Positions 40,013-44,854 of a DNA stretch of 44,854 bases are shown one piece after another; positions within the stretch are counted from its first letter, which is position 1, and each line of letters begins with the position of its first letter. Origin of the DNA: Bradymonadales bacterium (GTDB lineage Bacteria > Bdellovibrionota > UBA2394). The stretch is taken from assembly GCA_007693605.1 (NCBI GenBank), contig REDG01000022.1, positions 1-44,854 on the forward strand, written 5' to 3'. Below the pieces are notes generated by a model. That model was not told the DNA's origin and ran no database searches. It saw only the letters and a program-made list of their open reading frames with translations. Position numbers and translations under genes: made by a program.

Positions 40013-40089
40013 GGTGTCTGTAGCTCAGTTGGTAGAGCCCCGGATTGTGATTCCGGTCGTCGTGGGTTCGAGTCCCATCAGACACCCCA
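40013..40089 (+). tRNA. tRNA-His (GUG) with G-1 and encoded CCA
   Basis: G-1 plus GTGTCTG/CAGACAC-C73 acceptor stem, D arm GCTC/GAGC, anticodon arm CCGGA-TTGTGAT-TCCGG, T loop GGTTCGAGTCC, CCA at 40087-40089. Confidence 0.97.
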
Positions 40090-40196
40090 TCTTGCGTCCT
40101 CTTTTTCCGCCCAGCTTCGTTGCTCTCCTCACTGCGCTGCTCATATGGATGACCAACCGGCAAGTTAGAATATTGAATATTTTCAAACATATGATG

Positions 40197-40325
40197 GTCT
40201 CTTGGACTTTACAACCTCATATTCGCGTGCTGGTTAACGCATTAAGTTTTGTCCGTACGAAAGGCTTATCCACAATCTCGCGTCAGATGCTTTGTTTCTA
40301 AGCAGCGCCCGTGGGCTACCTTTCA
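40197..40325 (-). ncRNA. predicted bridge RNA / seekRNA in the non-coding region downstream of the transposase
   Basis: Stem-flanked internal loop carrying GCGCUGCU and ACGCGAG (target matches), plus a second stem-loop carrying AUAUGAG (donor-junction match). RNA ends are approximate. Confidence 0.7.
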
Positions 40326-40396
40326 TTCCACTTCATCACTGTTTATTCAATAGTCTCCTCGTCCTTTTTTGATCGTTTGATCAAAGTTTCAAATTC

Positions 40397-41515
40397 TTAA
40401 GCGGCAGCCCTCAGAGACTCCCAAACAAAACCCAGCAGCTCCCGAGCACAAGCCACTTTCACCTTATTGACGGGCTTGCCCGCATACAAAAGCCTGGAGG
40501 ACTTCTTGTGCAGCCGTTTCATACAACGATCCGCAATTTCAACAAGTTTTGGATCCACCCCCTTTCTCTTCTCCTTCAATCTCACACTCAGCTGAGGGAT
40601 TCGAGAGGCCATCTGACAGGCTTCCACTGCACTCGTCCTGATTCGATAATTTCCCATTTTGCTGAGCTGATACCGTCGATGCCGACCCCCGGAGCTATAT
40701 TCTCGCAAATCCAAGCCCGCATAAGAGGTCAACCGACGAGGGTGATCAAACCTCTGGATGTCCCCAAGCTCTGTGATCAAGGTCATCGAGGTCAGGGTGT
40801 CGATCCCCCGATAGCAATTCAAAGCCGCCACTTTTTTTCTATAGAGCGGAGCTTCCGCAATCCTCAAGATCTCTTCATCATAAACGGCCACAGAACTCTC
40901 CATCTGATGGAGCTGACTCAGAAGAATCTTAAGGTTAAACTCAAGGGCCCTTTCCGTGAGCCTCCCGAGTTCGGCCTCTAGCCAATTCAGATGAGACTTT
41001 GTCCAATACGCCGCTTTCTTCGAGCCTCTCGACTCGCGATAATCCAGCTTATGACGCCGACATAAAGCCAAAATATGCCGCTTTAGATCATTTACCTGCT
41101 CCTTCTGAAACTTTCGAGAGCGAATCAAATCTCGAATACTCTCTTCTTTCTCATCAGGGATATGAACAATACTTAACAAGCCCTTCTGGTAATACTCGGC
41201 TAGCTCCCGACAGTCGACCTTGTCCGTCTTCACCGCCTTGCCCACTCGTCGAGGAATCGAAGAGGGGGCCACCACTTCGCACAATACCCCCTTAAGAGCC
41301 AAAGCCCTCTGAAGACTAAAGCCAAGATAGGTCGCCTCGTAACACAGCTTTACGGGCTGACCCAGATCCATAAAAACCTTTAGCTTCTTTAGTAAAGCCC
41401 CCACGCTCGGCTTACACCTGAATTCTACCCGCTTTTCAGGCCGCCCCTCAATGATCCCACAACCGTGAAACGCTTCATCATCGACATCAATTCCTACATA
41501 TGTTACCAACTCCAT
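40397..41515 (-). CDS. IS110 family transposase/recombinase
   Basis: RuvC-like DEDD domain (YVGIDV, CYEAT, KTDKVD) and C-terminal YAGL...YSSGG serine motif. Confidence 0.95.
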   Translation of the reverse strand: MELVTYVGIDVDDEAFHGCGIIEGRPEKRVEFRCKPSVGALLKKLKVFMDLGQPVKLCYEATYLGFSLQRALALKGVLCEVVAPSSIPRRVGKAVKTDKVDCRELAEYYQKGLLSIVHIPDEKEESIRDLIRSRKFQKEQVNDLKRHILALCRRHKLDYRESRGSKKAAYWTKSHLNWLEAELGRLTERALEFNLKILLSQLHQMESSVAVYDEEILRIAEAPLYRKKVAALNCYRGIDTLTSMTLITELGDIQRFDHPRRLTSYAGLDLREYSSGGRHRRYQLSKMGNYRIRTSAVEACQMASRIPQLSVRLKEKRKGVDPKLVEIADRCMKRLHKKSSRLLYAGKPVNKVKVACARELLGFVWESLRAAA

Positions 41516-41763
41516 TGGATGACCTCCTTCTTCTTGTTTACATCTAGAAAATGATCACTTGATCACTTTATGTGTGAGGTAACCAGCCCTCGATTTAAAG
41601 AGGTTGGTCATCCATTATTTCTCGAGTAGTGTTGAACTACACTCCGCTGCTCGTTTCGTCGGCGCCTTGCTGGGCGAAAAAATTGAACGCAATCTGGCGA
41701 GGAGGTGTCTTTCTAGGACTCGAACCCACGAGTGGGGGAGAGGGGCATCAGACACCCCACTTG

Positions 41764-41920
41764 CTCAGATAAGCGCATTTTCGCCATACTTTCTCAGCCT
41801 CGGTACTCACTCAGTTACGTAGCATCCAAACTACGCGCCTTCGTTCGAACGCATCGGCTTCGTCGTCTGGCTCGCTTCTCTTTGTAGCTGGCGAGAAGGT
41901 GTCTTCAGGGACTCGAACCA
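41764..41920 (+). repeat. divergent second type of tRNA-linked hairpin unit
   Basis: TTTTCGCCA/TGGCGAGAA and CGTAG/CTACG stems; ends in an antisense tRNA-His fragment at 41898-41919. Confidence 0.65.
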
Positions 41921-42001
41921 TTTTTCCTCCATTTTCAAGCCGGAGGGTATTTTCAGTGTCGCTCTAAATGGATTTTTGATAGGGGTGAAAAAGGTGGTTT
42001 T

Positions 42002-42664
42002 ATGGGTTTAATCATTCGATCGGTGTTGGTTGGAATCTTTTCTTTGGGGCTTGGATCAGCGAAGGGGAGCGACTGCGCAGCTGTGATTCGTGCAGCAGTA
42101 GTAGACCCCTTTAATGTGACAAGACTTGTGTACTCTAGTCCTGATGCAGTGGGCGAGGCCCTTCGTCGATTTCTACAGTTGGATATGCCTGCTGAGCGGC
42201 GAGAATTGCCACAGGTGCCAGTTGGCTCATTGGCGGAGTTTTTTAGTTTCCATTTGCCTGCCAAGTCTATTGGTGAAATGCATAAGGCGCCTCAAGTTAA
42301 GATTTATGGAGAGATGCTTGCGTGGTTCTGGTTGACTCAGCAGGGCAACATTCCAGATGGGGCGCTGCTGTCATGTCGATCATGTGGGACTTTGCCGGAT
42401 ACCCCTGTATTGGTCGAGATGCGATCCGGCTCTGATGTTGAGAGACTGGAGGCAGGAATGACAATCGCAGGAGTTTCTCGGCCGATCGAAGGAGTTTCGG
42501 AATTTGTTCTCACGATTGAGAGTCGTGATGGCAGATTCAAGGCTCAGTTCGTTGAAGATCTAAGTAGGGGTGGATTTCTGGTAAAAGTCACGACTGTTTC
42601 ACGAGGGCGTTTTCGGAATAGAGTAGAAAGCCATTCATTTCAGGTGGAGTCGCTGGCGCCATAG
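42002..42664 (+). CDS. hypothetical exported protein
   Basis: 220-codon ORF, AAGGTGG RBS-like element, N-terminal signal peptide, CRSC motif. Confidence 0.65.
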   Translation: MGLIIRSVLVGIFSLGLGSAKGSDCAAVIRAAVVDPFNVTRLVYSSPDAVGEALRRFLQLDMPAERRELPQVPVGSLAEFFSFHLPAKSIGEMHKAPQVKIYGEMLAWFWLTQQGNIPDGALLSCRSCGTLPDTPVLVEMRSGSDVERLEAGMTIAGVSRPIEGVSEFVLTIESRDGRFKAQFVEDLSRGGFLVKVTTVSRGRFRNRVESHSFQVESLAP

Positions 42665-42699
42665 TTGTCTTCTTCTTATGAGTTGGCCGACCGCTAATC

Positions 42700-42858
42700 T
42701 TAGGCGGTAACGTTCTGAACTGTTCTCGCATGCCACCTTCCCTTTTTTGTCTTCGGTGGCACCTTCAACGTGTTGAGAATCTCTGAAATTTTCCAATAGC
42801 TATAGCCCTTCTCGCGAAGCTCCTTCATTTTTTCGATGGTCTCGGCCCGCTTTCGCAA
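42700..42858 (-). pseudogene. fragment of a serine-recombinase 'Recombinase' (PF07508-like) DNA-binding domain
   Basis: Manual translation, below the track length cutoff: LRKRAETIEKMKELREKGYSYWKISEILNTLKVPPKTKKGRWHARTVQNVTA*; resembles the C-terminal half of 44074-44481. Confidence 0.65.
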
Positions 42859-42864
42859 TGGAAG

Positions 42865-43392
42865 TCAATGTGCAGGCCGTGCGAGATTAACGGCCTTTGA
42901 TGTGCTGCTGTTGCGAGTTCCCCCAAGCACATACGGGCCGATTTCTTCGGCAGCCCTGGGTAGATAGACAAAGACTTCAAGGTCTGAAATATCTCCCAGG
43001 TGTTTCTCAATCAGAAGCTTTACATCGTGCCACTTTAGGCCACCTAGGCTGCAACCAAGAGCAGGCATTGCAAGTGTGTGAATGCCTAGATCCGTGTAAT
43101 GTTCAGCCAAATACTTAAGGCCAGCTTCAACATCTTCAAGATAAGAAGGTTCTTTCCAATGACGTTTCGTTGGGAAGTTTAAAATCTGAACCTGATCGTC
43201 CTCCCATAGATAAGGAACGCCCGGCTTCACTTCGCCACGTCCGCAGCGCTGTTTATAGTCGTCAAAAAGTGCAGGGTATCGAGCCTTGAACTCAAGAGCG
43301 AGTCCCTTTCCCATCGCCCCCGCACAATTGACAGAGTTGGTGAGAACCTGAGCAGGAGAGTCAAAAATATTTCCTTCCACGTATGTGATCAC
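42865..43392 (-). CDS. darG: macrodomain antitoxin (DNA ADP-ribosylhydrolase), DarG-like
   Basis: MITYVEGNIF, NSVNCAGAMGKGLA..FK..YP, NFPTK, PALGC.LGGL.W. GTG start 43392 overlaps the stop of the restored darT frame (GTGA). Confidence 0.88.
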   Translation of the reverse strand: MITYVEGNIFDSPAQVLTNSVNCAGAMGKGLALEFKARYPALFDDYKQRCGRGEVKPGVPYLWEDDQVQILNFPTKRHWKEPSYLEDVEAGLKYLAEHYTDLGIHTLAMPALGCSLGGLKWHDVKLLIEKHLGDISDLEVFVYLPRAAEEIGPYVLGGTRNSSTSKAVNLARPAH

Positions 43393-44040
43393 TTGTGCCC
43401 TGCCCTTTCTATGAAATACCAACCAGGGTTAATCTTCACTGTCCTATTTATACCAAACCGCTTCAGAACGGCCAAGGTGTTCGCCTGAGCTTCTTTAGAA
43501 TAGCAAATAATATCCAGGATCCAGGAGATGGTCAATTGGCAAAGAATCTGGAACAAGGACTTCAGCCTGTTTCTTACGCTTGAGGTCGAGGTCATGAGCA
43601 TATTTGACGGTCTGGATGGCCTTTGAATCAATGACTGCCAGATCATCTATCGTTTTAAAGACTTTGAATTGAGTATCTATTGAGCGCGCGTTCCCATCAG
43701 AGATGACAACTCCCTGCAGGCTGAGAATGTCCAAGGAAAATCTTAGAAACAGAAGATTGTCGTTCTGATCTTGATTCCGAGCGACCATAGGAGTTTTAAA
43801 GCCAAAATATAGTGGGACGTAATCATGCAGTGGTCGATCTGTTTCTTTGATCCGTATGCCTGCCCTGCCTTTTTGTACGTCCTCATTGGAAAGGTTAAAA
43901 TAAGTACGCCCCCGCATTCGATTGTAAGACTGCAAGTTTCCACATTCAAAAATGCTTTCCAGATTCTGATGGTGAGTCATGTGATGTGCGGGGCCAAGTT
44001 GAAACCGCTCTTTGATTGTCTGGTAGAGGGGCTCTGGCAT
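43389..44040 (-). pseudogene. darT: DarT ssDNA ADP-ribosyltransferase toxin (DUF4433), frameshifted
   Basis: HMTH..NL.SI, LHDYVPLYF..KTPM, SDGNA, KQAEVLV. The C-terminus (...INPGWYF) continues in another frame after a 7-bp tandem duplication at 43512-43526. Confidence 0.88.
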
Positions 44041-44073
44041 TGCCCAAAAATTTGCAAAGATTTTTGGATTTTG

Positions 44074-44481
44074 TCAGGTAATTAATCTCGATGTTAATTT
44101 GAGGGCCTGGCAGCCAAATCCCCCAAAAAACAGTTCTGGCTTGCCATTGGCCCCTTCCCGTCTGCTGCGCTTGAGGATGGAGTGGACGACCTTCCGGTCC
44201 CACTTTTCAAGACCTGTTTTTGTCCTAATATTTTGGCTCGTCAGCCAATCTGCTATTTCTCGATATGTGTTACCGTTGGTACGTAGTCGCCGCATTTCTA
44301 AAATCAATTTTTGCTCAGATCGATGAGGAACGACCTTACCCCTTTCCAGTTTATACCCGAACGCCAATTGGCCAGTGAAGCCTGTTCGTAGCGGCCCCTG
44401 TCTGATCGAGATTCCGAAGAGATCTAAATGCTTCATTACTGACGACCTAGCGCAGCCGATTTCTCTGGCAATTTGGCCCAT
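44074..44481 (-). CDS. small HTH + Recombinase-domain protein with no catalytic serine-resolvase domain; true 5' end unclear
   Basis: QIAREIGCARSSV HTH, AFGY, EQ..I..M..LR..G.TYREIA..L...I.TK...W motif. The frame stays open upstream without an ATG/GTG/TTG start. Confidence 0.7.
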   Translation of the reverse strand: MGQIAREIGCARSSVMKHLDLFGISIRQGPLRTGFTGQLAFGYKLERGKVVPHRSEQKLILEMRRLRTNGNTYREIADWLTSQNIRTKTGLEKWDRKVVHSILKRSRREGANGKPELFFGGFGCQALKLTSRLIT

Positions 44482-44609
44482 AGACTTCCCGTTTTTTACG
44501 TATTCGCGGTATAGAAAATCTCTATCTTTGTATGGCTGAGCCTCAAAAAACGGTGTAGTTATAATGAGATCGCTGTGGGGATCGTTAACTAGTTTACTGG
44601 AGCGTCTTG

Positions 44610-44811
44610 CACCCCATCTTGCGTCCTCTTTTTCCGCCCAGCTTCGTTGCTCTCCTCACTGCGCTGCTCGAGTAGTGTTGAACTACACTCCGCTGCTCGT
44701 TTCGTCGGCGCCTTGCTGGGCGCAAAAATTGAACGCAATCTGGCGAGGAGGTGTCTTTCTAGGGCTCGAACCCACGAAGTGGGGGAGAGGCTCATCAGAC
44801 ACCCCATCTTG
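44610..44811 (+). repeat. tRNA-linked palindromic repeat, intact copy (empty IS target), ending in a 19-bp duplicate of the tRNA-His 3' end and flank
   Basis: CATCAGACACCCCATCTTG at 44793-44811 equals 40076-40094; the body matches copy 1. Confidence 0.93.
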
Positions 44812-44837
44812 ACAGGGTGGTACACCCGTGTAACACT
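44809..44837 (+). promoter_or_regulatory. putative sigma70 promoter with an operator-like palindrome
   Basis: Perfect TTGACA at 44809-44814, weak -10 region (TAACACT), TACAC-cc-GTGTA palindrome in the spacer, ATG at 44844. Confidence 0.45.
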
Positions 44838-44854
44838 TAACCCATGCCCACTGA

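Follow-up and report, generated by a model that had tools for sequence, protein, structure and literature searches.

The stretch analysed here, hereafter the window, comprises the 44,854 nucleotides of contig REDG01000022.1 from a Bradymonadales bacterium (assembly GCA_007693605.1), and its right end raises the question of how a darTG-like module came to lie between two nearly identical palindromic units, each carrying an inverted and a direct piece of the adjacent tRNA-His gene. A sequence-only reading had suggested either a non-autonomous tRNA-targeting element or a folded single-stranded site, comparable to attC or REP sites, which captures cassettes at the tRNA. We consider it probable that the unit, which encodes no gene, is a hairpin repeat of the tRNA-linked kind, that a large serine recombinase, supplied in trans, brought in the cargo and that the unit was afterwards copied anew to the tRNA end.

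The tRNA-His(GTG) gene stands near the window end (40014-40089, forward strand) and is followed by two hairpin units of about 190 nt. Unit 1 begins directly downstream of the tRNA with a left hairpin arm (40090-40142, forward), is split by an insertion sequence (IS; 40143-41623, reverse strand) and resumes (41624-41759, forward) with the apical stem, the right arm, an antisense tRNA piece (41704-41731), a purine-rich spacer and a regenerated tRNA end (41746-41759). Unit 2 (44610-44806, forward) is intact, with its hairpin at 44617-44742, its antisense piece at 44750-44777 and its regenerated tRNA end at 44793-44806. Once the insert is removed, 192 of 197 aligned bases agree between units 1 and 2: 40083-40142 is identical to 44610-44669 (60/60) and likewise to the end of contig C54 of the same genome, and 41621-41738 matches 44667-44784 at 96%. 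The 16 nt of 41716-41731, preceded by GGTGTCT, are the exact reverse complement of tRNA positions 40060-40075 (16/16), with one change in the unit 2 counterpart (44762-44777), and each unit closes with a 14-nt copy of the tRNA end, CATCAGACACCCCA. The outermost part of the left arm of the fold-back is the 3' half of the tRNA. Compared with shuffled sequences, unit 2 has the better fold both as RNA (z -3.27; 0/200) and as DNA (z -2.66; 2/200). The twice-occurring imperfect palindrome of about 200 bp, with its antisense and terminal tRNA pieces, was thus correctly recognised from the letters alone. Behind unit 1 lies a second, diverged hairpin of the same family (41760-41930, forward), whose antisense piece (41898-41919, at the end of the hairpin 41760-41919) is shorter than in units 1 and 2 and runs into a tail (41914-41930) resembling the recombinase-side attachment (att) arm of a tRNA-His island in the relative G008. 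A third unit is split across two adjoining contigs: the window end overlaps C54 by 55 nt, C54 terminates in the left 61 nt of unit 3 and C43 opens with the right end of the unit, which brings the total to three units and one diverged hairpin.

The hairpin belongs to a family. We compared the genome carrying the window (G000, 90% complete; C numbers denote its contigs) with 13 genomes of the same family (G003, G004, G007-G009, G012, G013 and others, the relatives) and with 111 genomes outside it. A 120-nt profile has 12 matches in G000, of which 11 fall at tRNA genes (Leu, two Ser, Arg, Gly, His), and a shorter relative of the hairpin is dispersed in that genome with 63 matches. A covariance model built from 10 copies (R1) matches 11 of the 13 family genomes, and a second model (R2) finds matches in 19 of the 111 others, distributed over 8 of 22 other families. 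In an alignment of 40 members, which was fitted to the model and is therefore biased towards structure, 93.4% of the cells are paired and all 16 pairs show two-sided change; shuffles give 68.6% pairing (0/500 reach the observed value) and slid controls 38-59%. The apical four bases vary together with their pairing partner (GTAT, GTAG, GTAC and others), and GTAG is consequently not the fixed centre for which it had been taken. No Rfam family matches the hairpin (to E 5), and a terminator scan found none at the unit. A pattern scan across GTDB returned 11 loci, none of which held the unit on inspection, the pattern being too strict.

Position ties the family to tRNA ends, as the sequence-only reading had supposed. 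Among 47 matches in the relatives, 44 were examined (three tandem partial copies were excluded): 27 are found 3' of a tRNA or tmRNA gene, 5 at the 5' side on the opposite strand and 12 near no called tRNA, several of these last behind tRNA fragments; the model contains about 12 nt of tRNA end and may favour such matches. Outside the family (45 of 46 matches examined), 24 are 3' and 1 is 5' of such a gene; the other 20 lie elsewhere, 8 of them in a single genome, G114, where the repeat is dispersed. At the tRNA-His site, a 177-nt unit is present in G009 and the orthologous site of its congener G013 is empty, with flanks 81% alike; the unit has thus been either gained or lost between direct repeats.

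The antisense arm is cognate in part of the family. For units 1 and 2, the His end fits the arm better than any of 52 non-His tRNA ends, and the diverged hairpin is also cognate-best. Elsewhere, when each arm is scored against the local tRNA end and 49-54 others, the local one comes first at 10 of 27 loci in the family (Glu, His, Asp, Thr, Asn; orthologous in part) and at 3 of 25 loci outside it. A cognate arm is thus found in a minority of loci, so that most copies are bare hairpins and the full unit is a derived state. The antisense piece measures 23 nt at tRNA-Glu and reaches the anticodon arm at tRNA-Asp; the idea that it is merely the YGAAC arm of a recombinase site was rejected, as the Glu and Asp arms extend at least 23 nt into tRNA-specific sequence. 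Among 28 hairpins, the nearest relative of that of unit 2 stands at a tRNA-Glu and carries a Glu antisense arm, and for only 4 of the 28 does the closest hairpin sit at the same type of tRNA; the Ser and Gly hairpins of G000 are 98% alike. The direct tRNA-end copy is 18-19 bp long at the Glu loci of G009 and G013, against 14 bp in the units of the window.

This layout has a precedent in Escherichia coli, in the tRNA-linked repeats (TLRs), which include RtT/rttR of tyrT-tyrV (the RtT family, presumably accession RF00391) and RrA/B/F, and which are reported as known since 1978 (Egan & Landy 1978 and Rudd 1999, both cited in PMC8144298). As there, the unit is a gene-less structured element placed directly behind a tRNA (from 40090 in the window), ends in a cognate copy of the tRNA 3' end and may occur several times at one locus. 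In the TLR study (PMC8144298), 22 such repeats are described, each ending in 18-19 bp of the 3' end of the upstream gene (14 nt in the window), with one to five per locus and no known function as of 2021. Cognate antisense pieces are shared too: in MG1655, the lysQ repeat carries a 13-nt piece with an 18-nt direct copy and the tyrV repeats carry 10 nt, whereas four other lys repeats have none. The differences are that the sequences are unlike (R2 has no match on two E. coli loci, nor is there an Rfam match), that our unit is one long bulged hairpin continuous with the tRNA, that its antisense piece is longer and that its copies are separated by att-bounded cargo. The earlier view that the repeat belongs to no recognised named family is too strong, since the TLR arrangement was already known; what is new is an unrelated hairpin sequence in a cargo-separated form entangled with serine recombinases. 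In the literature covered, most subscription papers and supplements being outside its scope, we came across neither an account of this hairpin family nor one of TLRs within att sites of serine recombinases.

The cargo points to a second system. A small open reading frame (ORF) with helix-turn-helix (HTH) and Recombinase domains and no catalytic domain (44074-44604, reverse; PF07508) precedes unit 2; its relatives occur in 7 of the 13 family genomes and mark the far end of serine-recombinase islands. In several of them the ORF begins 100-102 nt from a site resembling a tRNA end; in the window the distance from the ORF anchor is 101 nt, to a degenerate attR-like site (44588-44616, forward) ending in the tRNA core CACCCCA. 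A clear hairpin match is present at 1 of 21 loci with this ORF. Full-length Resolvase+Recombinase genes, among them intact ones of the G007 Asn, G012 Asp and G003 tmRNA types, exist in the relatives and read into tRNA ends: the motif GTTCR-33 nt-YGAAC spans the tRNA or tmRNA end at 5 of 9 full-length recombinase loci, including tRNA-His in G008, and at 0 of the 32 tRNAs of G000. At the far ends, GTTCR-17 nt-core was found at 5 of 9 loci (chosen after the 100-102-nt spacing had been seen), with an arm 5 nt longer than at the tRNA, which is consistent with the attP versus attB spacing shift that a study on large serine recombinases describes (PMC3783163). By analogy, the motif may be the zinc-ribbon site of a serine recombinase. 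This likeness concerns the cargo and not the hairpin, and the modules differ from such islands in having no recombinase: in the window only the domain-fragment ORF is present.

The GTTCR-17 nt-core spacing also precedes unit 3, and of 14 regenerated ends, 2 are followed by YGAAC in exact register, namely that of unit 3, where the arm resembles the His arm of G008, and that at the tRNA-Asn of G003; att arms are clear before and behind unit 3 and at G003 Asn, and degenerate at unit 2. At this tRNA-Asn locus, a unit is followed by one gene between 12-bp inverted att-like arms and by a second unit 99% identical to the first. The cassette, about 720 nt long, holds a single gene, predicted to be acetyltransferase-like, and no recombinase. 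The T-loop GTTCR motif, which supplies one arm at each of the 5 recombinase junctions, is missing from the regenerated ends here, and yet the recombinase-side arm stands behind them in register; this is most simply explained if a module integrated at the true tRNA and the unit was inserted afterwards. As the unit lies inside the left att site both here and at the tRNA-Asn locus, each arrival of a cassette was likely followed by renewed copying of the unit to the tRNA end. The darTG genes and the other cargo were thus likely delivered by a separate serine-recombinase system and not by the hairpin; the earlier remark that plain duplication of island att sites does not explain the unit is borne out.

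From these positions and comparisons we propose the following order of events. (i) The hairpin of about 120 nt would move among tRNA genes as a REP-like non-autonomous element. (ii) Fold-back copying by template switch would lengthen the right arm of the hairpin by a mirror image of the 3' half of the local tRNA, and the direct copy would remain after a return switch; template switching at inverted repeats is a published model for inverted triplications (PMC5053440). (iii) A serine recombinase would integrate a module at the true tRNA, the likely target here, through the T-loop GTTCR arm with the crossover in the acceptor strand, and the unit would be pushed downstream. (iv) The 12-14-nt tRNA end and the terminal repeat of the unit would recombine, or slip against each other, and thereby place a fresh unit between tRNA and module, so that the left att site is split and the cargo probably fixed. 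Repetition of steps (iii) and (iv) would give the order tRNA-unit-cargo-unit-cargo-unit. The small HTH protein could act as a regulator or directionality factor.

Several results weigh against this proposal. The own tRNA is not the best fit for the antisense arm at 17 of the 27 loci in the family, at 22 of the 25 outside it and at all 5 other loci of G000. Unit 2 is preceded by a degenerate att arm and followed by the five-mer TACAC instead of YGAAC; the far-end motif is loose when taken alone, with 32 matches across G000 that are most likely due to chance. A catalytic serine recombinase was not found in G000 (0 PF00239 matches in a genome 90% complete). The sequence-only reading had proposed a search for an HUH/RAYT, GIY-YIG or integrase gene beside the units; no enzyme that would mobilise the hairpin was found, and there is no hairpin match near the one RAYT, the five tyrosine recombinases or the eight mid-size GIY-YIG loci of G000. 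Finally, no contig of the probable source run spans the array, and the module order in G000 rests on the assembly.

A bolder form of the same idea makes the unit a self-addressing mobile element, whose antisense arm, rewritten for each tRNA, would guide its return to the tRNA end, where it would land in the left att site of each new serine-recombinase cassette and lock it in; we regard this as doubtful.

About as doubtful is a history that starts from tandem units, with recombinase modules later landing at their regenerated tRNA ends; it comes closest to the landing site that the sequence-only reading saw regenerated by each unit. Cargo-free tandem arrays do exist (G009 Asp, G003 Leu and the Glu loci of G009 and G013; other repeat families at G000 Gly and Ser), cargo begins right behind the regenerated end, and the one to five TLRs at E. 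coli loci (PMC8144298) fit the same picture. However, the regenerated ends are without the T-loop motif common to all 5 recombinase junctions, and the units are near-identical while the cargo has decayed.

An improbable alternative is that the host retains the unit for a function in RNA: as a 3' trailer, it would refold the pre-tRNA through its antisense arm and provide another processing end through its direct copy, a role that has been proposed for E. coli RrB. In predicted folds, the trailer invades the tRNA by 12.6-20.1 kcal/mol and the tRNA 5' strand pairs with the duplicate end; the strong bias to the 3' side on the same strand agrees with this, as do RrA/B/F, reported as transcribed and processed (PMC8144298). 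The few RNA reads over the region are tRNA-like with other letters and have no bearing either way. Against this role stand the hairpins at tRNA 5' ends on the opposite strand (5/44), their dispersal in G114, a patchy distribution between congeners and the short form dispersed in G000 with its 63 matches.

The attC-like site building a cassette array, as first suggested, must now be considered very unlikely. In integrons, bulged hairpins alternate with small cargo, as they do here, and carry R'' (RYYYAAC) and R' (GTTRRRY) boxes at the hairpin foot. R-box pairs occur in 0 of 40 members (a single GTTRRRY stands at the unit 2 apex), and no integron integrase exceeds the cut-off in G000, the best TIGR02249 score being 71 bits against 265 in this 90% complete genome. 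The long bulged hairpin with covariation speaks for such a site, as does its being struck by an IS1111-type element, of a group some members of which target attC or REP sites (PMC11187229); two unit-cargo-unit loci are also known. Nevertheless, the boundaries fall at tRNA-core att arms outside the hairpin, cargo between copies is found at 1 of 85 relative loci (G003 Asn; most were seen with 0.8-1.5 kb of flank, and longer cargo would be missed), and in G004 a toxin-antitoxin pair stands directly behind tRNA-His with no unit.

That the array is an assembly artefact of a single repeat is scarcely credible: contigs C64, C54 and C43 all break at the unit and unit 2 base 44723 differs from the contig of the probable source run, yet Logan contigs of that run (labelled soda lake metagenome and not independent of the assembly) show three distinct left flanks, so that the repeat is not a plain assembly duplication, and other genomes show the same design. 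The contigs of the run, which cannot show rare forms, contain no joints of excised forms.

If the bolder reading of a self-addressing element were true, TLRs together with tRNA-targeting serine recombinases would act as a ratchet by which defence genes accumulate, with a result similar to that of integrons but reached through different chemistry, and repeats known since 1978 would gain a mechanism. The lineage offers natural comparisons absent in E. coli: a single hairpin family occurs at many types of tRNA, with arms rewritten from locus to locus, sites are found both empty and filled, and copies lie inside recombinase att sites; it makes testable how the mirror copy forms and whether the repeat stabilises islands. 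It also draws attention to tRNA-targeting serine recombinases with a readable att rule, on which single-gene cassettes would depend.

Two further groups of hairpin repeats deserve comparison. GTAG REPs have a fixed unpaired GTAG at the hairpin foot. Our repeat shares with REP/REPIN elements the nature of a multicopy extragenic palindrome, a short relative dispersed in G000 and the hit by an IS1111-type element; it differs in length (about 120 nt against the 20-40 nt given for RAYT-associated GTAG REPs in PMC3733652) and in its GTAG, which is paired, variable and present in 7 of 40 members, and the one RAYT of G000 is flanked by another repeat. That RAYT-like gene (C78, 26515-26841) lies behind a tRNA-Gln and a Fic-like ORF; its own inverted repeat is also present near other tRNAs. 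R2 has no match at this locus, and no other RAYT-like match occurs in 213 loci. Ssn GIY-YIG nucleases are accompanied by SRM hairpins (PMC11893778), likewise hairpin repeats of unknown mobility, whereas the SRM motif occurs in 0 of our 40 members and no GIY-YIG gene of about 90 aa is adjacent; a small GIY-YIG gene was not found in G000, where the smallest open frame among the family matches has 217 aa.

The insert in unit 1 is a member of the IS1111 group of the IS110 family: it encodes a DEDD transposase (40397-41515; PF01548 and PF02371) and has 14-bp subterminal inverted repeats (40145-40158/41602-41615) and a long non-coding region downstream of the transposase gene, features of that group as given in PMC11187229. 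The motif GCGCTGCT in this non-coding region matches the target flank. A 108-nt deletion form of this element sits in a related, dispersed repeat at the same target word (C71, 22045-22152), and a solo end at C30, 53202-53249.

The remaining cargo between the diverged hairpin and unit 2 comprises an orphan gene of 220 aa (42002-42664, forward; no Pfam match, Atlas matches all below 0.9), a darG-like macrodomain gene (42865-43422, reverse; PF01661) and a darT-like gene (43495-44040, reverse; PF14487), whose frame stops at profile position 165 of 201 and which, judged by its reading frame, looks broken near its 3' end. As a lead only, the clusters of one cargo protein are commonest in Bdellovibrionota. 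The small HTH and Recombinase-domain proteins without catalytic domain (44074-44604 and the relative loci L079-L100) form a family at island ends. Cargo 2 starts at 44807-44854 (forward), with TTGACA at 44809-44814 and the first codons of a ribbon-helix-helix (RHH) antitoxin, and runs on into C54, where Pfam matches and arms delimit an RHH-ParE pair, two unassigned ORFs, a second RHH-ParE pair, an att-like arm and the left half of unit 3. The two ORFs between the pairs (91 and 126 aa, 1542-2190 of locus L034) are adjacent and have no Pfam match.

Two more TLR-like repeat families stand behind tRNA-Ser, Gly, Cys, Arg, Trp and Phe genes of G000 (C18, C46, C61, C75, C53, C42; L037, L038, L041-L045), with direct tRNA-end copies of up to 32 nt and some in tandem, including Gly and Ser; behind the tRNA-Ser (TGA) of C11 (L040), a 12-nt antisense piece and a 20-nt direct copy occur without a long hairpin. 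Hairpins at tRNA 5' ends on the opposite strand were seen at L062, L064, L066, L071, L180 and L181, and the tRNA-Arg of G004 (L064) has a hairpin on both sides. At the tRNA-Thr of G114 (L172), the hairpin and an antisense tRNA-Thr end lie upstream of the tRNA, and the left arm is repeated behind it.

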